Positions 3 to 37,284 of a stretch of DNA of 64,000 nt are shown here, one piece after another. Each line of letters opens with the position of its first letter. The first letter of the stretch is position 1. The stretch spans positions 22,683 through 86,682 of the IMG/VR virus record IMGVR_UViG_3300036770_002019; one strand, written 5' to 3'. This stretch comes from an uncultured virus (IMG/VR IMGVR_UViG_3300036770_002019). Lineage: Duplodnaviria > Heunggongvirae > Uroviricota > Caudoviricetes > Crassvirales. A program made the position numbers and the translations under genes. A model generated the notes under the pieces. The model saw only the letters and a list, made by a program, of their open reading frames with translations, was not told the origin of the DNA and ran no database searches.

Positions 3-848
3 GTAGTAGTTAATATGGGTCCAGGTATCAACTGTATTATAGACCTAAATGAATCAATAGGTATAGGAGTAACTACAAGTGGATGTGGCTGTACAAACCC
101 ATTAGCTGTAAACTTCAATCCATTAGCAACTGAAGATGATGGAAGTTGTATAATTTTAGGGTGTACGGACGAATTAGCAATTAATTACTCCCCAAACGCT
201 ACTGTATCTGACGGATCTTGTATATACAACGTCAACCCAATAGAACCTGCGTGCATTCCAAACAGTGTAGATAACACTAATACTTACGATGTTACATTAA
301 GTAACATACGTAGATGTCTTTCAAAAGAAGGAACTACACTTCTATTTAAAATACGTGGTGGGGTTAAGTGTGATACTACAGATCAAATAAAAATTACTTT
401 AGTAACTTATTTACTTGGGAGATTAGGATTAGATTGTTTGTATAACTGTAACTACACATTCGACTACAATGGTCAAGAGATTGATTGCGAAAATCTTTGG
501 ACTCTTGGGGGACCTAGTGGTCCTGAGCTAGAATGGGATACTACTACAATCTATGCAGCTGGAGATATGATTAGATATACATCTAATGGAATTACTAGTT
601 ACTACACTACAATAGAGGCAGGGCAAGCTTTATTACCCCCACCAGCAGAGCCTTTAAAATGGATAAGATGTCAGGATTATTCATTACCTTCGGGAACAGA
701 AACATATCTAAATACTTTCATTAACTTTGCAAGAAAGTTTTGTTTAGTTTGTTTTTCAGACCCACTACCTGTAGCTCAATCCATAAGTGTAGAAAACAAT
801 TTACTTGGGGGAATAACTTTAGAAAACGGGGATAACATACAATTATAA
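3..848 (+). CDS. Cys-rich virion/tail-associated protein (5'-truncated)
   Basis: Frame is open upstream of ATG15 to the window edge; two GCTxxxAxNxxPxATxxDGSC repeats; WDTTTIYAAGDMIRY...KW resembles a CBM5/12-type module. Confidence 0.6.
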   Translation, partial: VVVNMGPGINCIIDLNESIGIGVTTSGCGCTNPLAVNFNPLATEDDGSCIILGCTDELAINYSPNATVSDGSCIYNVNPIEPACIPNSVDNTNTYDVTLSNIRRCLSKEGTTLLFKIRGGVKCDTTDQIKITLVTYLLGRLGLDCLYNCNYTFDYNGQEIDCENLWTLGGPSGPELEWDTTTIYAAGDMIRYTSNGITSYYTTIEAGQALLPPPAEPLKWIRCQDYSLPSGTETYLNTFINFARKFCLVCFSDPLPVAQSISVENNLLGGITLENGDNIQL

Positions 849-18971: not shown

Positions 18972-21900
18972 GTGAACTACAAACAGAAAATATAAGCTCT
19001 TTTACTGGTTTACCAATAACTCCTAAAGAAAAGAAACCAGAGGTGAGCGCTTTAACAGGTCTACCAATAACTAATCGTGCGGTTAGAACTGGGGTATTAG
19101 GTAATGTTCTTGGGCAAGCTGCCTCTGGTAATGTTAACTTGTTAGATCAGATGTCTTACAAAGACTATGAGTCTTACAAAAGTTATGGAGTAGCTGTATT
19201 GCCTGGTGTAGACTGGGATGAGCAAAGAGCTCAAAATCAATGGCGGTTAGAGAAATGGGCTTATGGAGCTACTAAAGCAGGAGTAACTTTTGGCACTTCG
19301 CTTTTAGAAAACACGGTAGGTCTAGTTGTAGGATTAGGATCAATAGCTACTGGTGGAAGTTTTTACGACAACCCATTTGGTAGAGGATTGGATAGTGTAA
19401 ATGAATACTTTGCAGAAGCACTCCCAAACTATTATACAAGAGAAGAACAAAACGCTTCTGCTTTAGGTGGGATGATGTATGCAAACTTTTGGGCTGATAA
19501 AGTATTAAATGGTGTAGGATATGTAGCAGGAAGTATTGCTACTGATGCAGCATTAGCATACCTTACAGGAGGAACAAGTTTAGTTGGGACTGCTGCCAGA
19601 TACTCACTAAAGTTTGGGGGAGTTCTATCTAAAGCACAAAAAGCTCAGGCTATATCCAACGTATACAAATTAACTAACTCAGCTCGACAAGGGGCAAAAA
19701 TAGCAGATGTTTTAACTGATGGGGCAAATGCTACAAGTAAACTTAAAAAACTGCGTGGAGCTAGGACAGCTTATGGCAGAGCTGAATCTGGGCTAATATC
19801 TGCTATTGGTGAATCTAACATTGAAGCAAGACAAGCTAAAAATGAAACTCTGCAAGGACTTAAAGAGCAATATGCGCTGCAGAATGGAATATCAGAAGAT
19901 GAAATTCCTGCAGAAATACTAGCAGGTATGGAAGCTTCTGCTACTGCAGCAGGAAATGTTGTATTTGGTATTAACCTCCCAGTAGTGGGGTTAACCAATA
20001 TGGTTACTATTGGGAGAATGTTAGGCCCAGGCTATAAACGATCTCTTCAAAAAGCTGCTCAAGAACGAGCTAAAAAATCTATTTACAATATTGGTGTTGG
20101 GAGAGAAGCTGATGAATTTGTAGATCTTGGATTGCAAGGTAATGCTGTTAAAAGAGCATTTGTAAAAGGTTCTAGAAAATTCGGAGAGAATTTTACTTCT
20201 GCATTATCAGAAGCTGGGCAAGAAGCTACTCAATTCTTTGCTTCTACGTACGCACAAGATTACTATAAAAACAAGTATTTCGGGAGAGCTGAGGGTATTG
20301 ATGGAATGATTGACTCCGCTGTTTATGGGCTAGAGCAAACTTTTGGGACTAAAGAGGGTCTTGAGTCTGCTCTTATTGGGGCAATAGTTGGGGGTGGAAC
20401 TGTTGGGGTACGTAATCTTAACAGAATTAGAAAAGGTGAAGAGTCCCTATCCCAAATCAAAACTAAAAATACACAAACAGTATTAGACATAGTTAACAGT
20501 ACTAATGGTGTAGTAGATGCTGTAGAAAGAGCTAAAAGCGCAGATACTTCTAACAAGCTTGCTCAAGCTATGGATAAACTCATAGCCGTAGCATCTGATC
20601 CGACAGTAGACAAAGCAACTAGAGATAGGGCTCAAAAACAATTTAAAGATTTACAGTATCAACTTGTAGCTAATGAAGCATTTACTCTTCTTGAATTTGG
20701 GAGAGAAGATATTCTTATGCAGCAATTAGATGATGCTAAAGATTTAGATGATGCTGAGTTTAAAAAAGCTTTTGGGTATGATGTTAACCAACCTCTTCCT
20801 GAAGGAGGGAAAGCTGCAATTGTAGATAAAATTAAAGATAGGATAAAGGAGCATAAAAAGGTAAAAGGGCAGATAGAGGAACTTGCCCCAAGACTCGAAA
20901 GAACTACAGGACTCCCAAGAACTTTGATGTCTAAAGAACAACAGCAGCAGGAAGATGAACTTATAGAAGCTAACAATTTCTACAGAAAAGCTCTATACAG
21001 CAGAGCCTCTGCAATATCAGGTTACAATACCAGAGCTGCCTCTATGGGGGTAGAAATGCAAAGAATAGCCTCTGAAACAGGGGTATCTTTGAATAGGGGA
21101 GCTATGGAAGATTTTGAATTCGATCAACTAGAGATTGAATTCGAAGACAATGATGAAGTAAAAGTTCAGGATGGGGGTAAAGTAAAAGGCAAACTTGTAG
21201 AGGAACTTCAAAAAGTTTATGCAGACCTACAAAAGAAAAACCCACTAGCAGCTAAAGAGTTTGCAACTCTTGCACAAGATTACTTGCATATAGTAGCTGA
21301 AAGACAAGCAGCAGTTAATTCTTTTGAAGCCTTGACTGATAAGAATGGATTAGAAAAAAGTGAGTACTTACGAAAGCGTCAAGAAGCAATGGAGGCTGAG
21401 GCTGCTAAAAAACAAGCAGAGGCAGAAGCCAAAGTTATTATAGACACAGCTGAAACTGCAAAAGATTTAGAAAAAGTACCTGATAATGCTACAAAGGAGC
21501 AGAAGGAATTAGCCAAAGCTAAAGCCAAAAGACTGCAAAGAGAGGCAGTTAAACGTGCTAAAAAGTACGAAAATAAAACTCTAGATGAACTTAGAGAAAT
21601 AGATACTGAAGCATTAGCACAACTTCCTGATGGGGAAATTGAGTTAGCCGCTCTTGAACTAGCTATTAACAGAGCTAAGAAAAAAGAACAAAGTCAACCA
21701 GCAATTGATCAAACTGAACCTGAAGCAGTTGAAGAAGCCTTCATCCCTGAAAATGTAGGAGAAGTTCAAATAGTATCAGCTAACAGTAGAGAGTTTGTAA
21801 TAGCTGGGAAAGTATTCTACAATTATGCAGCTGACCCTATATCTGCTATTAACAGAAACGAAGATGGGGTTATAATATCAGTAACTCTTTTAGATGAGAG

Positions 21901-24900
21901 TTTAAACCCACGTACATTTAGGAATGAAGCTACAGTAGATTCTTTAGCTTATGCTATACTTGCAGCACAATACAACACTCCTTCTGACCCAGAGATAACT
22001 GAAACAATAGAAGAAGATGTTGTTGTACGTACAGAAGCTGTTGCAGAATCAGTAGAAAAACTAGAGCGAAAAGCAAAACTTCCTCAAAATAAAGTTGAGA
22101 ATTCTCCTGTAGAAGCTATTAAAGCTCAACTGTTTGAACTGCATAGGGACTTAGAGGAGATAGTGGAAACTTTAGAAGAAAGACACGCTATACTCAGAGA
22201 GCAAAAAGTAAATAAAAAGAATAGAAGCAGAGACCCTCAGATACAAGAACTTACAAAATTAAAAGCTACTGTAGAAAAGCTTATAGCAGAAAGAAAGCAA
22301 GAACTAGAGAAGTTTAAACAAGAAGAAGTAAACCTTGAAGATGCAGAGAACAGACTTAATAAACTACGTACTGAGATAAATAAACTCTCCGAAGAAATTG
22401 CGGAGCTTGAAGCATTAGAATCAAGATTAGAAGAAGGGGGAGTTCAAGAACAAGCTCTTGCTAATGTTAAACAGGCTCGCAGAAAAAAACAAGCAACTAA
22501 GAATAGACTTAGTCGTGAATTAAATAGTATTCAAAATGAAAAAGTTGACTCTACAAGAGATGCAAGACAGGCTGCCGAAAGACTTGCAGGACCAATTAAA
22601 GGGCAAGCCAATGAAGGAGAAGGTGCAAATACTACTCCAGGACCTGGAACAGAGGGGAGAATTGTAGCCTCTAGAACAGATAGAACTGAACAAGCTGCAG
22701 AAGAAGTTGAACAAGCAGAGAGAAACGCTTCTGGGGAGCTTAGAGATCAAGGAGCAGGTCAAGCTCGTGGAGTGAAAGCTGATCAAGTTACTATAACCCC
22801 AACCCCTGCAGCTCCATCAACTCCTGTTTCTACAGATGCTAAAGCTGATATAGAAAGAAGAAAACAAGAATTAGGATTACAAAAAGTATTAAATATTTAT
22901 CCTCCCGACCAATCTGGAGGTTATAGAATAAAAATAAAAGGAGATAAATATGAAGTTCTTGTTCAATTTACAGGCAAAAAGTGGGATATTTTTCCTAAAC
23001 AAAAAAACGGAGATTTTCAAGCAACAGACCCTGAAACAGGTGATGCTTTATTAATTAATAAAGAACAAAGTAGAAAATTAGTAGAGAAATATTTACCTAA
23101 AAAGCTTGTTGATTTAATAGAATCAGCTGATTCTATTAAAGGGGTTGATAATCAAATAAAATTTGAACAAGGTGAAATTAAAGAATATGTAGATTTATTT
23201 AGAAAAGAATGGTTACAAGAAAGAATACCTATAGAAAAAGAATTATTAGAATTTTATCAATCTGATAAATTTGACAGAGAAAAAGAAGCTAAAGAAAGAA
23301 TAATAAAAGCACAACAAGAAGTAATTGCTAAATACGATGCAGAACTAGCTGCTTTAAAACAACAATCTACTGCAGGTACATTTACACCTACTACTCCGTA
23401 TGGAACTCCTAAAGGACCAGAGTTAACTACCGCTTCTACTCAATCTTCTGAGGCAATTCCAGTACAGCAATTACGCCCACAATCAGGATTAGATATTGCT
23501 GTACTCCCAAGTAACTTTGATACCTCTCCTGCATCTCCTGGAAGTGTATATGTAAACCCTGACGGCTCTCTCCCAATGAGTTCTCCTGCATCTCAAACTA
23601 TAAATGGGGAAGCAGTTATAATTGAGGATGGGGCGCTGTACAATTTTGATGATGACTTTGTTGGGAAAACTGTAACATTTGAAGTTAGAGAAGATACTGA
23701 TTGGGCTAAAGAACAATCTGATCTTAGCTGGAAAAATGCCCCAATATATGTAGTTCTTGATGGACAAAGAATTGCTCTTTTACAGTCTTATAATGAAGCT
23801 AAGAATACAGGTACTGCAAGAGAGGCTATTTACAGAATGTACAAAGAGGGGAAAACTCCACAAGCAGTTACTACTGGTAGAGGAGCTTTCAGCTTTTTAA
23901 ATGCTATTAACCCTGATACAGGTAAACCTGAGTTTGTAAATCCTTTAGAAGAATTTGAATCTCCTGCTTTTGCAGTTATTAGTAGCGAGGCAAAACAAGT
24001 TAGATATATAATCGGTCCAGGATCTAATCTCCCACAATCAGAGTTAGATAAAATGCAACAAGACTTGGATGAGCAAGCTTCTAAACTAGATAAAGATAAA
24101 TTTACAGAAGGGCAGGTAGTTATGGTTGTACGTACCCCAAATGGTAAGTATACAACCTATCCTGTATCTACTAAGAATTTAACTGAAGAGAGTACAAAAC
24201 TTGCTCTCAAGTTAATGAGTGAAAACAAAATAGTTGAACTGTTAGACTTAGTTGGGGTTAATGCCGACCCATATAACTGGGCAAGTAGAGCTCAAGGGAA
24301 ACCATCCTTTTTACATTATGTAGAGGCTGGTGACTTTTTTGTATTCCACAGCGATTCTGCAAATCAATTAGTGTCTATTAACTCTACAGAGTTAAGTAAA
24401 GCTATGCGTGGGGAGAAATTCTCTTTTGGGTATGTTCTTGGACCTACAACTGAGGACAATGATAGATTCGATAAAGATGAAAAAAGAAAAGACCACTCGG
24501 CTATTGGTAAGTTTATAGTTTCAGATCTAACAGCTTTACTTAAAAGAAAGAAGTACCAAGTATCAAAAGAATCTGTAAACGATAAAAATGCTCGTATAGT
24601 AAATCCAGAAACTGGGGAAGCTCAAAACTATCAAGAGTATATTTTTGGGGGAGGTCTTGCACAAGTAGATACTAGAAATAATAAAGGGTCTGTATTCCAC
24701 GGACTTCAAATTAAATTTGGGGCAATAGAGTCAGACAGTAAAACAAAAGGAGCTACAACTGCAGCTGCAACTTCTGTACACTCTAAACCTGCAACTACGT
24801 CTACTACTGAAGTAGTTAGATCTGAGGGTAAAAAAGCAGGTAGAGTTAGAAAAACAGAAAAAGTGGTAACTTTGAGTGAGTTAGGAGCTCAACCATCTGA

Positions 24901-25078
24901 TGAAATAAAAGCACAGTTAATGGCTGAAATGCAAGGAGTTACCCCACAAAACTTAGCAGATCTTGTAGGTAAATCCGCACCAGTTGCTCCTACAGCTGGG
25001 GGAATTAAAGTACTTTCTAAAAATGATTTGAACTCTCTGATAGATTTTGGAGATGAACTTAACAATATCTGTAAATAA
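18968..25078 (+). CDS. Giant ejection protein with N-terminal membrane helices
   Basis: 2036 aa; hydrophobic Gly/Ala helices, SEAGQEATQ motif, long coiled coils; precedes the RNAP. Confidence 0.7.
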   Translation: MSELQTENISSFTGLPITPKEKKPEVSALTGLPITNRAVRTGVLGNVLGQAASGNVNLLDQMSYKDYESYKSYGVAVLPGVDWDEQRAQNQWRLEKWAYGATKAGVTFGTSLLENTVGLVVGLGSIATGGSFYDNPFGRGLDSVNEYFAEALPNYYTREEQNASALGGMMYANFWADKVLNGVGYVAGSIATDAALAYLTGGTSLVGTAARYSLKFGGVLSKAQKAQAISNVYKLTNSARQGAKIADVLTDGANATSKLKKLRGARTAYGRAESGLISAIGESNIEARQAKNETLQGLKEQYALQNGISEDEIPAEILAGMEASATAAGNVVFGINLPVVGLTNMVTIGRMLGPGYKRSLQKAAQERAKKSIYNIGVGREADEFVDLGLQGNAVKRAFVKGSRKFGENFTSALSEAGQEATQFFASTYAQDYYKNKYFGRAEGIDGMIDSAVYGLEQTFGTKEGLESALIGAIVGGGTVGVRNLNRIRKGEESLSQIKTKNTQTVLDIVNSTNGVVDAVERAKSADTSNKLAQAMDKLIAVASDPTVDKATRDRAQKQFKDLQYQLVANEAFTLLEFGREDILMQQLDDAKDLDDAEFKKAFGYDVNQPLPEGGKAAIVDKIKDRIKEHKKVKGQIEELAPRLERTTGLPRTLMSKEQQQQEDELIEANNFYRKALYSRASAISGYNTRAASMGVEMQRIASETGVSLNRGAMEDFEFDQLEIEFEDNDEVKVQDGGKVKGKLVEELQKVYADLQKKNPLAAKEFATLAQDYLHIVAERQAAVNSFEALTDKNGLEKSEYLRKRQEAMEAEAAKKQAEAEAKVIIDTAETAKDLEKVPDNATKEQKELAKAKAKRLQREAVKRAKKYENKTLDELREIDTEALAQLPDGEIELAALELAINRAKKKEQSQPAIDQTEPEAVEEAFIPENVGEVQIVSANSREFVIAGKVFYNYAADPISAINRNEDGVIISVTLLDESLNPRTFRNEATVDSLAYAILAAQYNTPSDPEITETIEEDVVVRTEAVAESVEKLERKAKLPQNKVENSPVEAIKAQLFELHRDLEEIVETLEERHAILREQKVNKKNRSRDPQIQELTKLKATVEKLIAERKQELEKFKQEEVNLEDAENRLNKLRTEINKLSEEIAELEALESRLEEGGVQEQALANVKQARRKKQATKNRLSRELNSIQNEKVDSTRDARQAAERLAGPIKGQANEGEGANTTPGPGTEGRIVASRTDRTEQAAEEVEQAERNASGELRDQGAGQARGVKADQVTITPTPAAPSTPVSTDAKADIERRKQELGLQKVLNIYPPDQSGGYRIKIKGDKYEVLVQFTGKKWDIFPKQKNGDFQATDPETGDALLINKEQSRKLVEKYLPKKLVDLIESADSIKGVDNQIKFEQGEIKEYVDLFRKEWLQERIPIEKELLEFYQSDKFDREKEAKERIIKAQQEVIAKYDAELAALKQQSTAGTFTPTTPYGTPKGPELTTASTQSSEAIPVQQLRPQSGLDIAVLPSNFDTSPASPGSVYVNPDGSLPMSSPASQTINGEAVIIEDGALYNFDDDFVGKTVTFEVREDTDWAKEQSDLSWKNAPIYVVLDGQRIALLQSYNEAKNTGTAREAIYRMYKEGKTPQAVTTGRGAFSFLNAINPDTGKPEFVNPLEEFESPAFAVISSEAKQVRYIIGPGSNLPQSELDKMQQDLDEQASKLDKDKFTEGQVVMVVRTPNGKYTTYPVSTKNLTEESTKLALKLMSENKIVELLDLVGVNADPYNWASRAQGKPSFLHYVEAGDFFVFHSDSANQLVSINSTELSKAMRGEKFSFGYVLGPTTEDNDRFDKDEKRKDHSAIGKFIVSDLTALLKRKKYQVSKESVNDKNARIVNPETGEAQNYQEYIFGGGLAQVDTRNNKGSVFHGLQIKFGAIESDSKTKGATTAAATSVHSKPATTSTTEVVRSEGKKAGRVRKTEKVVTLSELGAQPSDEIKAQLMAEMQGVTPQNLADLVGKSAPVAPTAGGIKVLSKNDLNSLIDFGDELNNICK

Positions 25079-25084
25079 AAACTG

Positions 25085-28000
25085 ATGGCAACTTGTCCTA
25101 ATAGAAATTTAAAAGCTTGGAAAGATTTAGAAGCTGTTCAAGGAGAATCAATTGCATTAGCGATATGGGATAGATTTGATGGTCGTCCCCCAGAATTCTT
25201 TTACTCTACCCCACTTAAAGAGGGGACAGTAATAACAAAAGGATTTGATGTTCAGACTAGATTTACTGAGGAGCAGAATAATGCTATTCTTGATAGTATT
25301 ATCTACATGCTCATGGAGCAAAAAAAGCAAGAAGGCTTTAAGATAGAAGAGCAAATTGGAAATAAATCCACCAAAGGCTCTATCCCTAATTTCTTTCTGC
25401 AGCAAGCTTATGAGAATGAAAATGGAACAGCTGTTAGTTTAGAAGTAGCAGAATCTATTTGGGGGAAAGAGCAAGCATACGAAACGGCTGTAAGAGAAAA
25501 TCTCCCAGAAGAAACTCAAAATGCATTGTATGATGAGTGGGTAAATGCTATGGAAGAATCAGATGTTTATGAATCTGAACACCCAGCACGTGAAGCCTTT
25601 CTTGATATTTATGAGTTTTGGAATGGGGGTATTATTACCACAGGTAAAACAGAGAATGAAGTAAAATCTGACATAGCTTTAGGTAATATAGATATTGTTG
25701 GGTGGAGAGAACTCCTATCTAATAGAATTAAAGAGTTTGGGTATTCTATCTCAAACGTCGAACAAGAGGTAGAATTTGCATCAGACGAGGACATACTAGA
25801 AAGAATCTACAGTAAAGCTAGTATGGAAGAAGACCCTTCAAAAAAATTATCTGGGAGGATGAAAGAGCTATTAGCTACTATCCCTAACAGACAATTAAAT
25901 TTCCTAGGGTTAGCTAGTTATTTACCTGCAGATCAGATATATAAAGAACTTGCTACAACATTTGCAGGGTTGCAGAACTTCCCTGAAATGCTTGCTCAAG
26001 TAGAGACATTAGCATTACATAAACCTCAGTACGAAGCGGTGTCTGAGTTTATGAAAGGATTGAATAAAAAAGATGCTGCAGCTTTCAGTAGAATCTTTGC
26101 ACAATCTGCAAATGAGTTTTTGTTGATTAGAGTAGAAGCTAAAACTCCTGCAGGAGATGTAGTTAGAATATTTAACCCAAACGAAAACAGGATTGAGAGA
26201 TCTATAGCTACTACTTGGAAGAACGGAGCTGTAGAATCTAACATAGCTAAACCAAAAGCTATCTACAAAGTAACAGAGGAAGGCCTAGAAATAGATCAAA
26301 ATAAAGCTAAAGCTATTGCAGAAAATTGGTTATTGGTTAGAAGAGGTATTGCAGGTGTAGATTCGGTATCATCTACTCAGGGGGAGATATCTAAACCTGT
26401 ACAAGCTCTAACTGATATGCTGTGGAATATGGGGATATACTTAGGTGACCCAGAGATTAAACAAGAAACAGCCAATAACCTACAACAAGTTGTAAATACA
26501 GGAATATTTGTAGTAGAGAAAGGTAGAAGACAAAAACTTACAGGTAGAGCTGCTTATAACTACATTGCAAACAAAGAGGGTAAAAGCTTAGCAAGACTTG
26601 TATCTCAATTTGTAGTACTTAGCCCTGATGGAACTAAAGTTGAAAAAACTTTACGAACAGTTTCCACTACAATGTATGAGTCTCAAGGCTCAACAGTAAG
26701 ACACTTAGCATCGTTTGCCCCATTGTTTTTTGAAATGCGTGGGGATAGTTTTGTTAATGGGAAAGGTAAACAAATCTACCCAATTAATTTACGCCATCAT
26801 TTAGGTCAAGTATTTGAAACTCTTGGGAGTTCTACAGAGGATAAAACTAAGATGATGGATATGTATAGAGAGGATAAATTCTTTGCTCCTGTAGAAGGGA
26901 AAAATGAATTTGACTCTATACTTTTTAGACTTCTACAATCCCCAGAATTTACTAATGAGTTTAGAGCATTTGATTTAGATGCCCTCAAAGATGTTACTAT
27001 TCCTGATGGTACTGTAGATTACGAAAACTTCTCAAATACAGACTCTCTACGCACAAGATTAATTGCATACATCAACTCAGGTAATAGATCTACAGGATTA
27101 ATTGCTATCCCTATTCAATCTGATAGAAAGAAGTTTACTTTCTTCCCATTTGTACGTACAAAAAATTTAGCTGGTACACGAAAAGGTACTTTTGGGATAA
27201 CAGGGATGACTAAAAACGACATCATACTTGGACTTATAGTGCAAGATATGATGCGTATTGCTCATGGTAGAGGAATTCTTAGCAATCAAGTAACTGAAGA
27301 CGGACTCCCAAACCCACCAAAAGACCTTCCTGAAACGTATAAAAAGAATTTAAGTTCCCCAAAATCTATGCAATTTGATGGGACTTTAGTTGGGTCAGAA
27401 GGTAACATCCCTATTGTAACAGATGCTAGGCTTGAATCTAAAACTGGGGAATACTTCATTAGTGATTACATAGAAGAGTTTCTAACTGATCCAGAAGAGC
27501 TTAGAGACATTGAACCAGAAGTATTTAACGAAATACAGACTAAGATCAATGTAATGGTTGAGAGAGCTAACGAATACTTTCTCAACCAAGCTAAGATTTT
27601 AGATACTAAAATAAAAGAACAAGGGATAACTCTCCCAACAGAGGCACGAGAGTTTGGGGATAGAATGTCATTACTTGAAAATTATGTATTTGATGAGTTC
27701 TTAGGTAGAAACGAGATATCTAAAATACTTAGAGGTAGTAGAGCTCACGTAAAAGATATTCAAACCTTTTACAAAAGAGTTGGGCATGCTACTACTCCTG
27801 GGATGGAGGTAGCTTTAGCATCAGATTTAGCTATAAATGGATTGCAGGAAGTAGATGGGATAAGCAACTATGGGATGCCTGATACTTTTATAGAAGCTAC
27901 TTTTAATGATATTAAGCTTAACTTGGATGAAGAGATGCGTACACGCGCGATAGAAAGAGCTGAAGCAATTCGAGACGGACTTATTGAAGCTGGGTATGAT

Positions 28001-31000
28001 GCTGATTTTGCACAGTCAATGGCAGAAGAATACATGCCTAATGAAGTAGAGGGTACAGACGCACAGGGGTTGATTTCAATAGATTTCTATAGAGATCTAA
28101 TGCAAGGTAAAGGAGAGTGGACAATCAACGAAGAGAAAGCTTACGATGCATACAAACAAGCACCCGAAGGAAGTAAGCAATTTGTATATCAAACAGGCTT
28201 TACCCCACAAGGATTTAAACCAGGAGATGCAGTACCTTTTTATCCGCAAAAACCTTACTATGAGTACAATGAACTTGTAGGTGGGGTTGTTACGACTGAC
28301 TCACATAAAAACTCTTATCACTTACTATTAGAAGGGGAAACAAAAAGTAACCCTGTAAAAGACAATCTAAGACGGAGAATGGAGGCTGTTGGAGAGTATG
28401 CAGGCTTGCAACGTATTGGGGTAGCTAACTTTGTAACAGCAAAGAAGATTAAGATCAACAAGGTTAATACTTTGACTGATAAAGTTGGTGGGCTATCTAA
28501 TGTAGGAACTAATACAGTTAACAGTAGAGGACTAAGATTCCCTCAAGAGATCCCAAAAAAGAAAGCTTCTACTACAATGTTTAACCGTCAGGTTAGAAAG
28601 AATACAATATCGAACATTGATCCTAATCACACGTACACATTAAATGCGGGGTTAGATACTGAAATAAAAATATCAGGCCAAGAAATGCTTGATATGTATC
28701 ACGCCGCTATAGAACGTAAAATAGAACTAGAATTTAAGCAAGTAGAGAAAGAGCTTGGGGTAGATAAAATACAGAAAGCTTTAGCTAAACAAGATGTTGA
28801 AGAGTATAATGCAGCTTTAACTTCATTTCTACGTAAGCTTAGAGATAAGATTAAAGACAATAACATTGAAAGGGATCTCCCAACTAACTATGATGCTGGG
28901 TTAAGAATTGAGTTAGATGAAGCTGGGAGACCTCAATACCAAATTCCACTAGACTTCCCTATATACTTTGAAAAGTATGAAAGAGTACTCCTTGGGATGG
29001 CTGTTAATGCTGCATTTAAACAGAAAGTTCCAGGAATGGAGGCTGTGCAAGTTGCAGAAATTGGGGGATATGCTGAATCTGGGGAGTTAAACTTTTACGA
29101 AATCCAAAAAGATAAATCAGGTACCCCAAGAGTAGTTCACATGGAGGTAATGATTCGTGAGGATATAGCTCGTAAATTTGGGTTAGAGCCTGGACAAGAC
29201 TTAGACTCACTCCCAGAAGAACTAAGACGTATTATAGGGTATCGTATCCCCAACCAAGGAAAATCTTCTACAGTAATAATGAAGATTAAACGAATCCTAC
29301 CAGCTAATTATGCAAAAGCTGTTATAGTTCCTGCTCAATTAACTAAACTCACAGGATCTGACTTCGATATTGATAAGATGTTCTTGATGTTCCCAGAAGT
29401 TAGACAAACAGATGCTGGACCAGTTAAAGTTCGTCCTCCTTATGAGGGGATATTAGGAAAAGCTGTCCAGCCTGTAGCGGAATCAATTAATATTTATGCA
29501 GGAGATAATCAAAATGCAGATTTAAGTAATTTCGCAATTCGTCCTTTTGTTGTGCAGGGCGTGGAATACAAATCTGTAGAACAATATTTCCAATCTAAAA
29601 AGTTTGAAATTGCCGAAGTTCTTGAATTTGACACACAAGAAGCTGCTGATAAAGTCTTTGCAATAGCTGATAAGATTATGGAGACATCTTCTGGAGCGCA
29701 GTTAAAAAGACTAGGAAACACAAGAATACCAGGCGTAACTTTTAACGAAGAAAGTTGGAATGTATATGGAGAAGAAGCCATGTATGTGGGTATTTATGAA
29801 AGTTTTAATCAGAACCCAGAAGCAAGAAAACGTTTATTACAAACAGGCAATGCAGAACTAACCCACAAACAAGATAAATCTAAGTGGGGGAAAAAGTTCC
29901 CTGAAATACTAACTAGAGTTAGGGAAGAACTTAAAAAAGAATATCCGCAAGATGTACCTATAAAACCAACCCAACCTTCACAACAAGATTTAAGCACTCC
30001 TACTGCTATCAAACCAGGAGTAGAAAAATTATTTGATTCTAATCCTGAATTAGCTAATCAAGTATATGAAGCTTTGGGGTTTGATAATTTTACTAATCAG
30101 GAAAAAGAAACCTTAATAGCACAATTAAGAAATCCATTATTTGATTTAGTAAGAGGTACTGAATTGTATAATAAATATAAAGGAGAAACTATACCTTACG
30201 GCTATTCAGAAAATTCTTGGAAATTACTTATTTCTGGAATAACTGAATCTAAACTAGATTTAAATAAAATTTTATTAGGTTATAAACAAAGACTTTTAGA
30301 AGAAGAAAACACACCTATTAGAGAAACAGGTATTGACGAAAAAACAGGATTACCAAAAGGATTTAATCCTTCTACTGGTGCATTTGAAGGAGGATTTGGA
30401 GAAATTTCAGAAAAAGAAAATGCAATAAAAACTTCTAAAAATAAAATAAATGTTTTAAATAAATTTATACAACAAAAACAACAAGCTCTACAACTATACT
30501 CTCAATACTTAGATACAGGTAAACAAGATATAGAAGGATTTAAAGATTTTGCTAAATCTCCACTACAACAAGATATAAGCATAGATAAAATAACAGATAT
30601 ATCTATCCTAAACAATATCATTTTAGATGTAGTAGAAGCTGTTCAAGCTAATCTACTCCACGTAAATGAATCTATGGCTCCATTAGATGAATCTACTCTA
30701 CCTAGATTAGTTGCAGATATTGAAGCTAAATTCCCAGAATTACAAGCCCCACTAGAGTTTGCTAGTGTAGACATTGAGACAGAAATGGGGATACGAAATA
30801 CTATAGGTAGAGCTATGCGTGGATTGTGGGCTAACTTTATAGCTGGTCATGCTGTAGCTGCTTTTGGGGATATTGTAGTAAATGCTAACTACGAATTAAA
30901 TTTAGATGGGAAAGCATACCCAAAACTTATAGGAGTTGCAGGGCAAGAAGTTGCAGAGTTCGACAGAGGAGTTCCTATTAACATGATAGGTTCTAGATAC

Positions 31001-32719
31001 TTATCTGCCGCAGTAGATGCTGCTAAAAAACCTTATCAGTATACACTTAATGATAGAACTTTTACTTACCCTATAGAAGCTTATTGGATGGCCTTCTCTG
31101 GGGATACAAAAGCGCTGCATGATTTCTTGAATGTCCCAATCATAAGACAGTTTACTGATTTGTTTTATACAAAGTATGGAGCCAAACCTATACTAATGGA
31201 GAATGCACTATTAGATGTTATCCCTAAAATGTATAAAGACAGCTTGAAAGAAGATAGGTTACGTCCAGCTACCTCAATGACAAGAGAAGAACTTGCAAAC
31301 CCACAAGATCTTCCTCCTGCTAGACAGTACGAGCTGCTATTAAACATGTTAAAGTTTAGAGAGGCTGGTAGATCTATGACTCAAATGTTTAAGGTTATTG
31401 CCCCAGATTCTATGGATGGTATGAACAGCATAGATTCTATTAAATCATACAGAAGTAGACAGAATCAGTTTAACCCTAACATTACAAGCCCAGAAAATCA
31501 AATCTTCATAAACCCAAATGCTCCTTTAGAGCCTGTAGTAGATCAATTTATAGGACAAGTAAGTGTATATGGAATGCAGAGAGGGTTTTCTAATCTCTTT
31601 TTGGATATTGCAGATATGGCTGCTAAGATATTCCCCATGACTGTATCCCCAGCTATGGATAATCTGGACATGAGAATAATGGATTTAACTGGGAATACAC
31701 AATTAAATCCTGAAGCGCATAGAGATATTAGAAGAGCAGCTATGCTAAGTGTATTTGCTCAAGAAGAATCCCCATTAAGAGAATTCTTCAGTGATACGCA
31801 CCTAAAACTAAACTATCTAAACAAGGATAGTAACTTGGTTACAAAGCTCAGGGACTTGAAAGTAAAGTATCCTAAACTTGCAGAAAACTTGTTTATTAGA
31901 AAGTTTGTGGAGAACAATGATAATGACCTCCCAGAAACTAAAGTGTTCTTGTTAGATTTCGATACATCTTATCAAATGACTAGGTTTGAAAAAGATGCAG
32001 TAACTTTAGCAGCATACAGATTACTTAAACGACCAGAAGAAGTTGTTGGGAAAGATGCTTCGATAGAAGATAGACAATCTATAATAAACTTAGCTGAAGA
32101 TCTGTTGATGAACACATTAATAGTTCATGGGTTTAAACAAACGACTGGTTCATACCAAGATCTTATACCTGTAACATTCTTTACAGATAATAGGTTTGCA
32201 CGTTACAACAATCCTGGGGAAAGACTTGGATCCCCAGTTAAATACTTTAGACAGCAGATGACTTCTATGTATACCATAGATACTTTTGATAACTTTGCAG
32301 TAGATTTTATACGCCAAAGCTTTCAAACGTCTCCTGGTGGATACACATTAGTCCAAGGTATACGAAAGAAAGCAACACCTAATGAAATCGTTTTAAGTGA
32401 TAAAGACAAGATTAGAATGTACAGAAATGGGTACCCAATTCCTTTTATTACAGTGACAAACTCTACAACTAACGAAACATTCTTGTACGCATCTGGTCAT
32501 ATTTTAACTTCAGGAACTGTAGAAGGAAAGTATGTAAAAGTTAATCCTTTAGGGGTAGACAGTAAATTAATAGAAGCAACAAACCCTGATAAGTCTGTAA
32601 TCAATGAACAAGGATTACCACTATCATCTATTGTTATGACTTCTACAACTACAGGAATTTCAACTAATGCAGGCTCAATAGCCTCTACAGAGAACCAACA
32701 ATCTATAATCTGCAAATAA
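25085..32719 (+). CDS. Virion RNA polymerase (crAss-like, phi14:2 gp66-type) with inserted NADAR domain
   Basis: TDAQG, GYRIPNQG, catalytic GSDFDIDK (DFDID at 29360-29374) and SAAVDAAK motifs. Confidence 0.92.
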   Translation: MATCPNRNLKAWKDLEAVQGESIALAIWDRFDGRPPEFFYSTPLKEGTVITKGFDVQTRFTEEQNNAILDSIIYMLMEQKKQEGFKIEEQIGNKSTKGSIPNFFLQQAYENENGTAVSLEVAESIWGKEQAYETAVRENLPEETQNALYDEWVNAMEESDVYESEHPAREAFLDIYEFWNGGIITTGKTENEVKSDIALGNIDIVGWRELLSNRIKEFGYSISNVEQEVEFASDEDILERIYSKASMEEDPSKKLSGRMKELLATIPNRQLNFLGLASYLPADQIYKELATTFAGLQNFPEMLAQVETLALHKPQYEAVSEFMKGLNKKDAAAFSRIFAQSANEFLLIRVEAKTPAGDVVRIFNPNENRIERSIATTWKNGAVESNIAKPKAIYKVTEEGLEIDQNKAKAIAENWLLVRRGIAGVDSVSSTQGEISKPVQALTDMLWNMGIYLGDPEIKQETANNLQQVVNTGIFVVEKGRRQKLTGRAAYNYIANKEGKSLARLVSQFVVLSPDGTKVEKTLRTVSTTMYESQGSTVRHLASFAPLFFEMRGDSFVNGKGKQIYPINLRHHLGQVFETLGSSTEDKTKMMDMYREDKFFAPVEGKNEFDSILFRLLQSPEFTNEFRAFDLDALKDVTIPDGTVDYENFSNTDSLRTRLIAYINSGNRSTGLIAIPIQSDRKKFTFFPFVRTKNLAGTRKGTFGITGMTKNDIILGLIVQDMMRIAHGRGILSNQVTEDGLPNPPKDLPETYKKNLSSPKSMQFDGTLVGSEGNIPIVTDARLESKTGEYFISDYIEEFLTDPEELRDIEPEVFNEIQTKINVMVERANEYFLNQAKILDTKIKEQGITLPTEAREFGDRMSLLENYVFDEFLGRNEISKILRGSRAHVKDIQTFYKRVGHATTPGMEVALASDLAINGLQEVDGISNYGMPDTFIEATFNDIKLNLDEEMRTRAIERAEAIRDGLIEAGYDADFAQSMAEEYMPNEVEGTDAQGLISIDFYRDLMQGKGEWTINEEKAYDAYKQAPEGSKQFVYQTGFTPQGFKPGDAVPFYPQKPYYEYNELVGGVVTTDSHKNSYHLLLEGETKSNPVKDNLRRRMEAVGEYAGLQRIGVANFVTAKKIKINKVNTLTDKVGGLSNVGTNTVNSRGLRFPQEIPKKKASTTMFNRQVRKNTISNIDPNHTYTLNAGLDTEIKISGQEMLDMYHAAIERKIELEFKQVEKELGVDKIQKALAKQDVEEYNAALTSFLRKLRDKIKDNNIERDLPTNYDAGLRIELDEAGRPQYQIPLDFPIYFEKYERVLLGMAVNAAFKQKVPGMEAVQVAEIGGYAESGELNFYEIQKDKSGTPRVVHMEVMIREDIARKFGLEPGQDLDSLPEELRRIIGYRIPNQGKSSTVIMKIKRILPANYAKAVIVPAQLTKLTGSDFDIDKMFLMFPEVRQTDAGPVKVRPPYEGILGKAVQPVAESINIYAGDNQNADLSNFAIRPFVVQGVEYKSVEQYFQSKKFEIAEVLEFDTQEAADKVFAIADKIMETSSGAQLKRLGNTRIPGVTFNEESWNVYGEEAMYVGIYESFNQNPEARKRLLQTGNAELTHKQDKSKWGKKFPEILTRVREELKKEYPQDVPIKPTQPSQQDLSTPTAIKPGVEKLFDSNPELANQVYEALGFDNFTNQEKETLIAQLRNPLFDLVRGTELYNKYKGETIPYGYSENSWKLLISGITESKLDLNKILLGYKQRLLEEENTPIRETGIDEKTGLPKGFNPSTGAFEGGFGEISEKENAIKTSKNKINVLNKFIQQKQQALQLYSQYLDTGKQDIEGFKDFAKSPLQQDISIDKITDISILNNIILDVVEAVQANLLHVNESMAPLDESTLPRLVADIEAKFPELQAPLEFASVDIETEMGIRNTIGRAMRGLWANFIAGHAVAAFGDIVVNANYELNLDGKAYPKLIGVAGQEVAEFDRGVPINMIGSRYLSAAVDAAKKPYQYTLNDRTFTYPIEAYWMAFSGDTKALHDFLNVPIIRQFTDLFYTKYGAKPILMENALLDVIPKMYKDSLKEDRLRPATSMTREELANPQDLPPARQYELLLNMLKFREAGRSMTQMFKVIAPDSMDGMNSIDSIKSYRSRQNQFNPNITSPENQIFINPNAPLEPVVDQFIGQVSVYGMQRGFSNLFLDIADMAAKIFPMTVSPAMDNLDMRIMDLTGNTQLNPEAHRDIRRAAMLSVFAQEESPLREFFSDTHLKLNYLNKDSNLVTKLRDLKVKYPKLAENLFIRKFVENNDNDLPETKVFLLDFDTSYQMTRFEKDAVTLAAYRLLKRPEEVVGKDASIEDRQSIINLAEDLLMNTLIVHGFKQTTGSYQDLIPVTFFTDNRFARYNNPGERLGSPVKYFRQQMTSMYTIDTFDNFAVDFIRQSFQTSPGGYTLVQGIRKKATPNEIVLSDKDKIRMYRNGYPIPFITVTNSTTNETFLYASGHILTSGTVEGKYVKVNPLGVDSKLIEATNPDKSVINEQGLPLSSIVMTSTTTGISTNAGSIASTENQQSIICK
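29483..29940 (+). other. NADAR (YbiA-like) domain embedded in the RNAP
   Basis: LSNF...SVEQYFQSKKF...W...M...F.QNPE...LLQTG..L.H..D..WG...IL..VREEL. Confidence 0.85.
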
Positions 32720-35700
32720 TGAGCTGCGAATATAAAATAAACGGGAAAACAGACCCAACCCATACAGAGTTATTCAACTATGTTGCGAATAACAGAGAGA
32801 GATCTGCAGACGAAGTATACAGAATACTGAGAGAAGCAGGCATAGCAATTAAAAAAAATGATGCTGGAGGGAATCCTCGTATGTACTTAGTTATGGGTAC
32901 AGATAGCTCTGTTAGCTACAAACGAGCTCAAGACATAAATTTAGGAGCTAGATTATTTTTTGGAGTGCCTCAAAACGAAAGACTTTTAGAGTACACTAAT
33001 CTAGGTACTAGAAGTAACAAATTTACTGGGGTAAATACTCTGTTTGGGTTGAGGATTAATGAGTCCGTTTTAAAAAATATGGAGTCACCTCAACAGCAGT
33101 ATGAAAATATTGCAGAGATACTTGAAGAGGAGGCTAGAAGAGTTATCTTAGACACTCCATCCCCATTTAGGGATGATTATTTATTATCGGAGGCTGCTCT
33201 TCAAGCTAATAATTCTGAAAGATCTAAGTTTTCTAAGATGGCTCAAAATAGTGTAGATAACACTGTTAAGCAAATTACAAAACTAAAACAGGCATTTAAG
33301 AATGCTGGTATTGATGTAGAGGTAAGATTAGATGGGGATATCGAAGAAAAGGGGGTTTTACTTCCAGTAAGTGAAGACAACCCAAATCCAGTAATACTTC
33401 TTAACCCAAACGAAATTACAGAAGATACTGTATACCATGAGTTTGCTCACTTGTTCATAGATTTATTGGGGTATAATCACCCACTTGTACAACAAGCTAT
33501 GGAAGAGCTTAGAGGTAGTGAACTTTACCAAGAAGTATTAGAGTACTACCCCGAGCTGGAAGGAGATACTGAAAGATTAGATAAAGAAGTACTTGCAACA
33601 GCAATAGGATTAGAAGGGGCACGAATGGAGAAGAAGGCCCCTAACAAATTACAATCCATTATAAATAGAATATTCAGAGCTATAGGAAAGTTACTTGGGG
33701 TATCTCAAAACGCAGTTTCTCAGTTAGCTGTAAATATGATTGTGAATGAAATAGATGTTACTCAATTTAGAGGGGCACTATCTTCATATGCTCAAATGAG
33801 TAAAGCTGAACGCAATGTAAAAAACATTGTAGAAACTCTTAGGGAGAAAACAGAAACAGCTATTCTACAATTAGAGTCTCTCCCATTTAAAAACGAAGCC
33901 GCTATTAACGAACTCAAACTCCAGCAATCTAAACTAGAGACGGTTACAGAAGTAGAGGGTTTGATTGACTTTGTTAACTACACAACTAGATTAGCTGCTA
34001 GAGCTGAAACAACTTTTGAAAACATCTTAACTGAGTATTCTCCTAATCCTGCACTAATTACTGGGGAAAAAAGATTACAAATGCTGCAACAATTGCATCA
34101 AGTACATCAATGGTTGCAGGCATTTCACAATAACACTAGCAAAAATGGGTCTACACTTACAGCTATCAAGTTAGAGCTACGTAAAAAAACAGATGCTGTA
34201 GAAGCTTCTGGTGGGAATATAGCAGAGCTAACAGCTTTTAAAACCAGACTGGCAGATGCTATTGATGTATTAGATGAGTTAGACGAAAAGTATGCTAAAG
34301 TGGGTATCCCAATTCTAGCAGATCTTCTATTAGAATATAACAAACCGCAGATCGACGATAAAATTAATGCAGCAATAGAAAAAGTCCGCACTACTGGTAG
34401 AGAATTTGGGTTGGAGAGAAAGACCCCTGAATTTAGAGAACTGCAAAGACAGCTTAAAGCAGGAGAAATAACTAAACAAGAGTTTGATGCTGCAAAGATT
34501 GAATTGAATATAAAACATCTACAAGCCCGTAAAATTGGGAGAGAAGCTATTATTCAAGAGCTTACTGAGAGTCAAAAGAATAAAAGCTGGTTATCATATA
34601 TGATGGATCCAGTTATATACTCATCTCAACCAGCTATACAGTTATTTGCAGGACACGTTAAAGCAGCACTATACAGAGCTGCAGATAAGTTTAGAGAAAC
34701 TAAATATGAACTCAGAGACATCTACAGAGAGTATGCAGAGTCAAGACCTGGGACGGAATTTGACGATGCAGCTTTCAACGAACCTGTTCTTGAAACTTAC
34801 ACATATGAAGTTATAGATTGGGAGGAAACTAAGAAGACTGGGGAACATGTAACTAAGAGAATGAATCTTTTAAGTTTTGTTCAACCTTATGATGTTGGGA
34901 AGTATTACCAGGCAGAAACAGATGCAATTACATCTTTAGCTAAAAAATATAATCGACCTACAGACCCAGACGAATTAAAAGCTTGGACTAAATCTAAAAA
35001 AGCAACTCAATATTATGCTGAGCTTTCGCAATGGTATGCAGAAAACTCTGTAATGGCAGAAGATGCTCAAGAGAGATATGATACTTTAATAAGTAAAAGA
35101 AAAGCTCTCCAAGTAGAATTAGAACAAGCTTTACAGGTAGGGAATTCTAATAAAGTTGGGTTGTTAGAAGCAGAGATAGCTTCTTTATCTACTCAAATTG
35201 GGGCAGCATATGACTTTAGAGCTAAACAATTTAAAGGTTCATTCGCTCGACCAAATGATAAGTACAGATCTGAAAAGTACGAAAAGCTTGTAAAAGATAA
35301 ATCGTCTGTAGAATATAGATACTATCAAGCGTTATTAAATGAGTACAAGAAATCTCAAAAGAAATTAGGACGTACAAACCAAGTTAGAAATAGTTGGAAT
35401 GACTTTTCTTACATACTCCCAACAGTTAGAAAATCTACCCTTAATAAAACAATAGAGGGGGCAAGTTCTATAGATGTATCTCAAGTTGTATCTGCAGGTA
35501 AAGATATGATTAAAGATACGTATGAAATCCTGGAAACAGATACTGACTACGGGGTACTTGTAGGATTAAATGGGGAAAGATTACAAACTGTACCTGTATT
35601 CTTTACAAACCCTGTAGATGAAAAAGATGTAAGTAGGGATGCTCTTGGGAGCATACTTAAGTTTACACATATGTCCAACATGTTTGAAGAAAAATCTAAG

Positions 35701-37284
35701 ATACTTGGGTCTGTAGAAATGATGAGAAGTGTTATTGAACAGCGAGGAACTTTAGAGCAAGATGAATCAGGTAACCCAGCGTTTAATAAAGTTACAGCCA
35801 GACTTAAAAATATGGCCAAGCGTGCTGTAACACAAGACCCTAAAAAAGACCCAGATAATCAATTTAGACATTTAAGTGAATTCATAGACTCTGTATTCTA
35901 TGGGGAAAAAGATCTTAAAAATCAATTAAATGCATCAATAAGATTATTTGGGAAAGAGATAGACATATCTGGGAATAAACTTTCTCAAACAGCAACAACT
36001 CTAACTGCAGCTACGTCATTGATTGGGAACAAGCTGCAAGCAGTTAACCAGATAATAATGGATAATGAACGTTTGATTGAAGAAGGGATTGCAGGAGAGT
36101 ACTTTGGGAAATTAGATTTAGCTTGGGCAAAAGGAGAGTACTATAAAAATCTACTGACTTTAAAGACAGTAAAAGATGCAGGTAGTTTTGCTAAGGATAA
36201 TAAAATGCTTCAAGCTGCAGAGCTATTAGATGCATTATCTGATTTAATAGACAGCAATGGGGATAGAGTTACAGGAGCTCGTCTTAAAAAGTATCTGTCC
36301 TTTGATACAGGATTCTTTATGCAGAACATGGCAGAACATGAAACTGCTTTAACACGAATGCTTGCTGTAGCTAGAGGATACAAAGGAAAGCTAAAAGATG
36401 CTGCAGGTAATGTAATATTGAACGAAAAGAACGAACCTGCAGATTTATACGACCTGCTTGTAAAAGATAAAAAAGGAATGTTAACTCTGGACCCAAGAGT
36501 AGCTAATATTACTTTGTACGATGTAAGGAGTACATTAGCAGGATTACAAAAGAAATCCAATCAGCTTAAAGGATCAGTAGATAGGTCTATGGCTGAAAGA
36601 AGAGCTGCAGGAAAGATGGTTACTTTGTTTAGAAGATTCTTAGCCCCAGGTTTTAGAAGACATTGGGGTCATGGAGGGTTAGCTAACGTAGCTTTCTTAC
36701 ATGTAGATACAGAAACAGGAATGCTGTCTGAAGGAGCGTATTGGACTACATTCAAATACATTCGAGATCAAGTACAAAGTATAGCTACAAAACAACCAGC
36801 TAATGTTTGGAATTTATTAACTGCAGATGAAAAAGCTAACGTACGTAGAACTGCTGCACAATCTACATTCTTTTTAAGTTCTATGATTTTAAGTGGATTG
36901 TTAATGGGGGCAGCAGCAGATGAGGACGATGAGGAAAAAGCTGCTCAATACATTTTCTGGGCGTACCAAGCTAGAAGACTGCAGACTGAACTTGGGGCAT
37001 TCTTATCCCCAAAAGAAGTGTACAACATTACTAAATCCCCATCAGCTGCTTCTAGGCCTATAATGAATATATATGATCTAATGACACATATTGTTTTCAA
37101 AGAGATACCGTATGCTTTAGGTGCAGATGGATTAGAAAAAGATATTTTCTACCAACGCAAAAGCGGGGAATTTGAAAAAGGGGATAGAAAAGTAATTAAG
37201 AAGATCAGATCTGTTATCCCAGTATGGAGCGGGTTAAACAAAAACGCTGAAGAGGCTATTAAGTGGTTTGATCTTAATGGGTAA
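32719..37284 (+). CDS. Giant ejection protein with zincin-like metalloprotease domain
   Basis: VYHEFAH (HExxH) plus a downstream EVLA glutamate; C-terminal hydrophobic helix; typical third crAss-like cargo protein. Confidence 0.75.
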   Translation: MSCEYKINGKTDPTHTELFNYVANNRERSADEVYRILREAGIAIKKNDAGGNPRMYLVMGTDSSVSYKRAQDINLGARLFFGVPQNERLLEYTNLGTRSNKFTGVNTLFGLRINESVLKNMESPQQQYENIAEILEEEARRVILDTPSPFRDDYLLSEAALQANNSERSKFSKMAQNSVDNTVKQITKLKQAFKNAGIDVEVRLDGDIEEKGVLLPVSEDNPNPVILLNPNEITEDTVYHEFAHLFIDLLGYNHPLVQQAMEELRGSELYQEVLEYYPELEGDTERLDKEVLATAIGLEGARMEKKAPNKLQSIINRIFRAIGKLLGVSQNAVSQLAVNMIVNEIDVTQFRGALSSYAQMSKAERNVKNIVETLREKTETAILQLESLPFKNEAAINELKLQQSKLETVTEVEGLIDFVNYTTRLAARAETTFENILTEYSPNPALITGEKRLQMLQQLHQVHQWLQAFHNNTSKNGSTLTAIKLELRKKTDAVEASGGNIAELTAFKTRLADAIDVLDELDEKYAKVGIPILADLLLEYNKPQIDDKINAAIEKVRTTGREFGLERKTPEFRELQRQLKAGEITKQEFDAAKIELNIKHLQARKIGREAIIQELTESQKNKSWLSYMMDPVIYSSQPAIQLFAGHVKAALYRAADKFRETKYELRDIYREYAESRPGTEFDDAAFNEPVLETYTYEVIDWEETKKTGEHVTKRMNLLSFVQPYDVGKYYQAETDAITSLAKKYNRPTDPDELKAWTKSKKATQYYAELSQWYAENSVMAEDAQERYDTLISKRKALQVELEQALQVGNSNKVGLLEAEIASLSTQIGAAYDFRAKQFKGSFARPNDKYRSEKYEKLVKDKSSVEYRYYQALLNEYKKSQKKLGRTNQVRNSWNDFSYILPTVRKSTLNKTIEGASSIDVSQVVSAGKDMIKDTYEILETDTDYGVLVGLNGERLQTVPVFFTNPVDEKDVSRDALGSILKFTHMSNMFEEKSKILGSVEMMRSVIEQRGTLEQDESGNPAFNKVTARLKNMAKRAVTQDPKKDPDNQFRHLSEFIDSVFYGEKDLKNQLNASIRLFGKEIDISGNKLSQTATTLTAATSLIGNKLQAVNQIIMDNERLIEEGIAGEYFGKLDLAWAKGEYYKNLLTLKTVKDAGSFAKDNKMLQAAELLDALSDLIDSNGDRVTGARLKKYLSFDTGFFMQNMAEHETALTRMLAVARGYKGKLKDAAGNVILNEKNEPADLYDLLVKDKKGMLTLDPRVANITLYDVRSTLAGLQKKSNQLKGSVDRSMAERRAAGKMVTLFRRFLAPGFRRHWGHGGLANVAFLHVDTETGMLSEGAYWTTFKYIRDQVQSIATKQPANVWNLLTADEKANVRRTAAQSTFFLSSMILSGLLMGAAADEDDEEKAAQYIFWAYQARRLQTELGAFLSPKEVYNITKSPSAASRPIMNIYDLMTHIVFKEIPYALGADGLEKDIFYQRKSGEFEKGDRKVIKKIRSVIPVWSGLNKNAEEAIKWFDLNG

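Follow-up and report, generated by a model that had tools for sequence, protein, structure and literature searches.

Paired terminal cysteines in the split virion RNA polymerase module of Crassvirales suggest that separately encoded proteins are linked end to end

Among human gut phages, Crassvirales are the most abundant. For two cultured crAss-like phages, phi14:2 and crAss001, a virion RNA polymerase (RNAP) and the proteins associated with it are reported to be located in the virion, and the RNAP to be delivered to the host (phi14:2 preprint; PMC10172136). How such giant internal proteins exit the capsid and start transcription is described as an open question (PMC10172136; PMC13434306). 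Here, we analysed the RNAP module of an uncultured Crassvirales phage, which is encoded in a stretch of 64,000 nucleotides, referred to as the window, that is part of the 86,682-bp IMG/VR virus record IMGVR_UViG_3300036770_002019, rated complete. The window module shares with phi14:2 gp67/gp66/gp65 and crAss001 gp47/gp50/gp49 the homology of the RNAP core (23-24% identity), a motif of the DFDID type, the gene trio and the pattern of terminal cysteines (Cys) described in this work; the window phage is only a distant relative of both, and its closest clade holds forms in which the module is fused.

In other crAss-like phages, the same three parts occur in the same order in a single-chain 'polyprotein', but without Cys. 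Fusion into a polyprotein is mentioned in the phi14:2 preprint, where the polyprotein is supposed to be cleaved; contrary to this view, the comparisons below suggest that the split forms are re-joined. N4-like phages (Schitoviridae) possess a virion RNAP of about 3,400-3,500 amino acids (aa) that is likewise giant, ejected and strongly Cys-suppressed, and the Cys suppression of N4-like ejected proteins has been ascribed to their passage through the periplasm (PMC11445570). The chains analysed here show a similar near-absence of Cys, with 115 internal Cys in 239,570 residues (0.048%) versus 1.19% in control proteins from the same loci. However, the N4 RNAP is one chain with a T7-like fold (PMC13434306), whereas the window module has three open reading frames (ORFs) and a gp66-type polymerase. 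A possible correspondence of the three crAss proteins to the N-terminal domain (NTD), core and C-terminal domain (CTD) of the N4 enzyme is raised as a question in a 2026 paper on N4 (PMC13434306). As a single chain, the N4 RNAP has no need of terminal Cys, and no Cys pairing rule is described for it.

Two-chain translocated toxins carry a Cys pair that flanks the chain break and keeps the parts joined outside the cell until they are released by reduction in the cytosol. Similarly, a Cys pair flanks the chain break at both junctions of the window and at 51 boundaries of the 52 surveyed below. However, the toxins are mostly nicked from one precursor with the Cys in a loop, whereas here the proteins are encoded by separate genes and would be connected end to end, with up to four in a row; the likeness is one of working principle only and not of homology. 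Podovirus ejectosomes are known as non-covalent assemblies and, to our knowledge, no terminal Cys rule has been described for them. Their internal proteins (T7 gp14/15/16, P22 gp7/16/20) reside in the head and leave through the tail, either ahead of the DNA or together with it (PMC10172136). For the RNAP-module proteins of crAss-like phages, we found no description of terminal Cys pairs in the full-text literature searched. In the portions of text searched, the word 'cysteine' is absent from what the crAss001 atlas (PMC10172136) says on gp47, gp49 and gp50 and from the phi14:2 preprint, and a term search of the 2026 N4 paper (PMC13434306), similarly limited, found no mention of such pairs.

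The three ORFs of the window module lie head to tail on the plus strand and encode a first protein of 2036 aa (18968-25078; hereafter 'up', the counterpart of phi14:2 g067 and crAss001 gp47), the RNAP of 2544 aa (25085-32719) and a last protein of 1521 aa (32719-37284; hereafter 'down', the counterpart of phi14:2 g065 and crAss001 gp49). In the translations, the 6101 residues of these proteins contain four Cys, and all four are at junction-facing ends: residue 2035 of up (codon TGT, 25070-25072; the penultimate residue, in ..NNICK), residue 4 of the RNAP (TGT, 25094-25096; MATCPN..), residue 2543 of the RNAP (TGC, 32711-32713; again penultimate, in ..SIICK) and residue 3 of down (TGC, 32725-32727; MSCEY..), all on the plus strand. 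The remaining ORFs of the window hold 151 Cys in 11,289 aa, i.e. about 1.3%. In a post hoc test, the chance that four randomly placed Cys all fall within four residues of the four facing termini is (16/6101)^4 = 4.7e-11. The counts, positions and codons of the Cys listed in the initial annotation agree exactly with the ORF translations, as does its statement that two cargo proteins encoded upstream are Cys-free.

Motif and homology identify the 2544-aa protein as a crAss-type virion RNAP, which contains the sequence GSDFDIDKMF at aa 1426, with the catalytic DFDID motif at aa 1426-1430 (29360-29374, plus strand); the same motif is present in 42 of the 42 lineage representatives introduced below and in phi14:2, and the crAss001 version is GSDFDVDKLY. 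Moreover, RNAP residues 1100-1440 matched chain A of PDB 6VR4, the solved gp66 structure (E 9.9e-16), and tblastn gave 23-27% identity to crAss-like RNAPs including phi14:2 g066 and crAss001 gp50. The down protein has an HExxH motif at aa 240 (33436-33450, plus strand), is tied by blastp to the down proteins of many loci and had no match in Pfam or PDB; up matched an unnamed PHROG only. Just after DFDID, the RNAP carries an inserted NADAR/YbiA-like domain (aa 1476-1603; 29510-29893, plus strand; Pfam PF08719, E 6e-14; PDB 2b3w). NADAR-like inserts were also detected by blastp in loci L019, L017 and L024 and are present in cr126_1 ('DUF1768'); a virion-delivered NADAR domain that removes ADP-ribose could act in counter-defence.

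We scanned IMG/VR with the window RNAP and obtained 78 loci, in 20 of which TAG had to be read as an amino acid. Plus-strand ORFs of at least 300 aa were taken from the first ATG, the loci were clustered at 60% identity into 42 lineages, and the most complete locus of each lineage was used. Starting with the ORF directly before the RNAP ORF, each pair of consecutive ORFs with lengths of at least 1000 aa and at least 600 aa was counted as a chain boundary. At 51 of the 52 chain boundaries, a Cys was found 1-7 residues from the C-terminal end of one protein and another at position 2-7 of the protein that follows (51 with both sides, one with the N-side only, none with the C-side only). The sole exception is in L044, in which the only Cys is 32 residues from the end. 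No Cys on both sides was found at any of the 32 other, non-chain boundaries of the survey and, among 131 control ORFs from the same loci, 9.2% had a Cys at position 2-7, 4.6% had one in the last seven residues and none had both. Altogether, the chains contain 106 terminal Cys, and 26 of the 42 lineages have no internal Cys at all. The intergenic gaps at the paired boundaries range from -8 to 541 nt.

A scan with a single down protein added one close relative (L084), and a scan with p-crAssphage gp44 returned only strains that are 92-98% identical and therefore added no independent lineages. The last protein of L049, a locus whose cluster is represented by L048, begins with a TTG codon and reads (M)AKKGC.. 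Counting Cys positions in orthologous protein triplets, the check proposed with the initial annotation, thus revealed conservation, both at 51 of the 52 boundaries and in phi14:2, crAss001, DAC15 and p-crAssphage. In total, we conclude that the terminal-Cys pattern is not due to chance and is conserved.

The two sides of the boundaries differ in character. In 41 of 51 cases, the C-side Cys is located 1-3 residues from the end, and in 48 of 52 the N-side Cys occupies position 3-5. On the C-side, the final 40 residues form a polar tail (hydrophobic fraction 0.25 versus 0.325 in the background, p = 2e-13), and K/R residues are over-represented next to the Cys (48% at +1 versus 13% in the background), while the N-side heads have ordinary hydrophobicity. 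In an alignment of 16 down proteins sharing 14-30% identity, only five columns are invariant, among them M1 and C3. The N-side has two recurrent motifs, C-P-N-x4-E-W-K and M-x-C-K. The former is at the N terminus of the RNAP in the window (25094 onward) and in L011, and at the N terminus of the last protein in many other lineages (L018, L025, L031, L037, L041, L043 and L052); it may be a portable 'acceptor' head. As lipobox and CaaX motifs are commonly defined, the termini lack the features of lipidation sites, i.e. the N-side Cys at positions 2-7 has no hydrophobic leader and the C-terminal ends vary (C, CK, CE, CNS, CKNNK and others). Co-folding of the last 150 aa of up and the N-terminal 350 aa of the RNAP, run without alignments, scored 0.29 (mark 0.34).

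The Cys pairs follow the fusion and fission of the genes. In the five lineages with complete fusion, a single ORF of 4652-5346 aa contains no Cys at all. By blastp, the fused proteins of L005, L007 and L008, as well as that of L003 from the L005 cluster, contain homologues of up, RNAP and down in that order; for fused L010, RNAP and down were detected, and for fused L017, up and the RNAP core. Where up and RNAP are fused (e.g. in L009, L012, L019, L039, L041, L050 and L054), terminal Cys are present only at the C-terminal end of the fusion and at the N terminus of the last protein. Conversely, in L011, in which RNAP and down are fused, Cys are present only at the C-terminal end of up and at the N terminus of the fusion; in L022, one extra split is accompanied by one extra Cys pair. 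The split up, RNAP and down proteins correspond to separately encoded pieces of what is, in other Crassvirales, one Cys-free polypeptide of about 4,600-5,350 aa. In the region of fused L007 equivalent to a junction, there is a 93-aa charged stretch with no Cys and no alignable counterpart, which argues that the gene breaks fall in linkers.

Among the 25 chains complete at both ends, the total number of Cys equals 2 x (proteins - 1) in 21. The four exceptions are L016, L034 and L026, which have an RNAP without up directly upstream, and L027, a lineage with many internal Cys. The outward-facing ends are generally free of Cys: none was found in the final 10 residues of the last protein (31 of 31), and none in the first 10 residues of the first protein in 26 of 30 cases, the exceptions being the same four lineages. 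For two of the three exceptional RNAPs without upstream up, the opposite strand encodes a protein that has a C-terminal Cys; a large convergent ORF ending ..KCRV or ..HCR is present in L016, L029 and L034. We thus observe a sequence pattern that is conserved and that covaries with gene fusion and fission.

One candidate for a recent split with a new C-terminal Cys, L042 (4910-8470), was rejected because it carries frameshifts relative to the fused gene of which it is a copy. Three frames of L042 are needed to align the tail of the fused L017 protein, and the apparent C-terminal Cys of L042 is out of frame; the frameshifts would reflect either an assembly error or a decayed gene. L042 was not used as evidence, and its cluster mate L017 serves as the representative.

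In the cultured and named relatives, the pattern is kept at 23-24% RNAP identity to the window (phi14:2, crAss001 and DAC15). In phi14:2, the only Cys of g067 is its last residue (1797 of 1797), g066 has Cys at 3 and at 2179 of 2180, and g065 at 3. In crAss001, the only Cys of gp47 is residue 2339 of 2341, gp50 has Cys at 5, 1334 and 2404 of 2412, and gp49 at 5. In DAC15, the only Cys of protein 61 is residue 2220 of 2222, protein 63 has Cys at 5, at three internal positions and at 2265 of 2265, and protein 62 at 4 and 619. In both crAss001 and DAC15, the first chain protein is encoded convergently to the RNAP and the Cys pair is still present; the pair is thus independent of gene adjacency. 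In p-crAssphage, the zincin-bearing gp45 (..SFSCM) precedes the RNAP-bearing gp44 (MSCGNIK..), so that the pair is kept in an order unlike that of the window. The zincin-bearing protein also precedes the RNAP protein in crAss002, in which gp32 ends ..SFVCS. The annotated start of crAss002 gp33 (L083, 12824-25561) looks 32 codons early, because initiation at Met33 would give MSCTPSNPK.., which matches MSCGNIK.. of p-crAssphage gp44 and the N-side Cys rule.

These arrangements also bear on the order of entry. The initial annotation had a membrane-inserting protein lead the others in gene order; this part is not supported, in that up has a single marginal hydrophobic segment and, with the zincin-bearing protein before the RNAP in p-crAssphage and crAss002, the gene order is not universal. 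Any order in which the parts would enter the host is a prediction.

In a quick IQ-TREE of the RNAP core (45 rows), the window belongs to a six-row clade (support 100) together with L009 (up and RNAP fused), L011 (RNAP and down fused) and L005, L007 and L008 (all fused), and all four gene architectures occur within this clade. Parsimony on this topology requires a minimum of six changes at up|RNAP and of three at RNAP|down, i.e. at least nine fusions or fissions.

The initial annotation proposed that each C-terminal Cys pairs with the N-terminal Cys of the next protein through a disulfide or a shared metal. The core of this proposal, that the two Cys work together, gains strong comparative support: the pair is conserved at 14-30% identity, present at every split apart from that in L044, gone at every fusion and kept without adjacency. 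As read from these genomes, the observation generalises to a rule across Crassvirales, and the pairing idea is strongly supported by the evolution of the module. The pattern together with its loss at fusions suggests that one chain is formed by joining the separate proteins end to end, and we consider it probable that an inter-chain disulfide replaces the lost peptide linker to give an unbranched chain of separately encoded proteins. At each gene break, the Cys at the tip of the polar C-terminal tail and the Cys at position 2-7 of the next protein would form a disulfide that stands in for the peptide linker, and this link would form in the released virion. The near-total lack of other Cys would prevent loops and branches: since each protein has Cys only at its ends, any pairing would give an unbranched chain with stubs of at most six residues. 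The chain could then still thread the narrow tail channel partly unfolded, and reduction in the host cytoplasm would free the parts.

Such an unbranched chain with short stubs fits a tail transit that requires partial unfolding of the cargo, as crAss001 cargo must partly unfold to pass the tail constrictions (PMC10172136). Purified crAss001 virions contain disulfides in the tail and in gp57 (PMC10172136). Taken further, the RNAP module would be one functional chain across Crassvirales, in which, after any gene cut, the pieces are reconnected through a disulfide between paired terminal Cys, a 'pseudo-polyprotein' of roughly 6,100 residues threads the tail as a single string, and only reduction in the host cytoplasm separates the parts; we give this broader proposal even chances of being correct. 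Reduction may in addition be the trigger that switches on a self-inhibited RNAP.

Several points weigh against a chain linked by disulfides. Oxidation or linkage of the terminal thiols in virions is a prediction. Both C-termini in the window end in ICK and no docking signal is evident, which leaves a specific head-to-tail pairing unexplained. Virions assemble in the reducing cytoplasm, and a disulfide would therefore not help co-packaging unless its formation were catalysed, and would form only after release. A search for the Erv1/Alr thiol oxidase family, which gave no match in control genomes and hence carries no weight, gave none in the 86.7-kb record of the window either. The authors of the phi14:2 RNAP preprint assumed that the fused polyprotein is cleaved into parts, in which case the module might work as separate rather than linked proteins. 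The exclusion of Cys is not absolute, as up to 15 internal Cys per chain are present in some lineages (L065, L062, L063, L016, L034 and L027) and 10 in p-crAssphage. Finally, homology of the N-terminal half to up was confirmed by profile search in six of the 22 lineages scored as up+RNAP fusions; the search (jackhmmer with the N-terminal 900 aa) converged early and left most lineages unreached, and the other calls were made by size and by a DFDID motif located roughly 2,500-3,600 residues into the protein.

The covariation data also fit a model in which the terminal Cys join neighbours via a shared metal ion or other thiol chemistry instead of a disulfide. We regard this as unlikely: there is one conserved Cys per side with no conserved His, Asp or second Cys beside it, positions +1/+2 on the N-side are mostly P/N and the C-side flanks mostly K, His is rare in the window proteins, and two thiolates alone make a poor metal site.

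Equally unlikely, in our estimate, are Cys that do not pair with the neighbour and serve instead in homodimers or as a tether to the portal, the capsid interior or another virion part. A disulfide has no inherent preference for joining a C-terminal to an N-terminal end, the identical ICK ends would allow any pairing, and smaller cargo-like proteins of p-crAssphage and crAss002 have a lone C-terminal Cys. However, the two sides of a boundary come and go together and neither is present in fused forms, the Cys totals are even and match 2 x (proteins - 1) in all but four of the complete chains, so that no outside partner is needed, and the last C-terminus, which faces no neighbour, consistently lacks Cys.

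Far less probable still is that the Cys serve covalent processing by thioester ligation or trans-splicing into one true polypeptide. A residue followed by Cys near the C-terminal end and a Cys near the N-terminal end are ingredients of thioester chemistry, and the single-chain relatives indicate that the joined product is viable. However, no intein (Hint) domain was found by Pfam in any protein, and no Pfam family of any kind at the termini, where Cys 1-7 residues from the ends leave no room for intein halves; the N-side Cys is at position 2-7 and not at 1; and the junction-equivalent region of the fused relative is a charged linker and not a fold. We know of no precedent for ligation or splicing of this kind. 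In crAss001, the separate gene products were identified by mass spectrometry, which does not by itself give intact masses (PMC10172136).

Lastly, a by-product of nucleotide signals at stops and starts, as might be considered for the tight window junctions (TAA..ATG and TAATG), or chance in Cys-poor proteins, is judged refuted: the pairs persist with convergent genes (crAss001, DAC15, L016, L029 and L034), across long gaps and in the p-crAssphage order, use both TGT and TGC and lie at positions 1 to 7, and the probability calculated above for the window alone is minute.

The rule that the number of Cys is 2 x (proteins - 1), all at facing ends, turns the disulfide-linked chain into a concrete hypothesis that can be tested at the bench in phi14:2, crAss001 and DAC15. 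If true, such linkage would account for the free interchange of fused and split gene layouts, connect the three-protein module of crAss-like phages with the NTD, core and CTD of the N4 polymerase, which is a single chain, and overturn the view of the polyprotein as a mere precursor for cutting. Moreover, phage infection would gain a redox-controlled step, and annotators a check on start codons and frameshifts, as for crAss002 gp33 and L042.

Upstream of the chain, the window encodes the two Cys-free cargo proteins on the plus strand: one of 960 aa (14012-16894), which matches by blastp ORFs directly upstream of the chain in L003, L005, L009 and L011, and one of 690 aa (16899-18971), which matches the ORF just before the chain in L003-L011. 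Homologues of the 960-aa protein, both partial ORFs, have a tight cluster of four Cys in L007 (ORF 3-1934, positions 356-370) and L009 (ORF 3-1703, positions 269-281), which may be a metal site. In p-crAssphage (L081), gp47 has one Cys (856 of 857) and gp48 has three, the last in ..VYRCGGHRR; in crAss002 (L083), gp30 has one Cys and the end ..RCGGKKKIA. For these three proteins, the next protein has no N-side partner.

Under the standard code, L057, L058 and L062-L079 have no long ORFs. When TAG is read through, these loci have ORFs of 4,200-4,700 aa (5'-open) and of about 1,560-1,790 aa, most of which hold 11-62 in-frame TAG codons, with fewer in two truncated ORFs; by this reading, they are instances of stop-codon recoding in gut crAss-like phages. 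The most Cys-rich ORF of the window encodes 277 aa (15-848, plus strand) and has 15 Cys (5.4%), in contrast to the cargo block.

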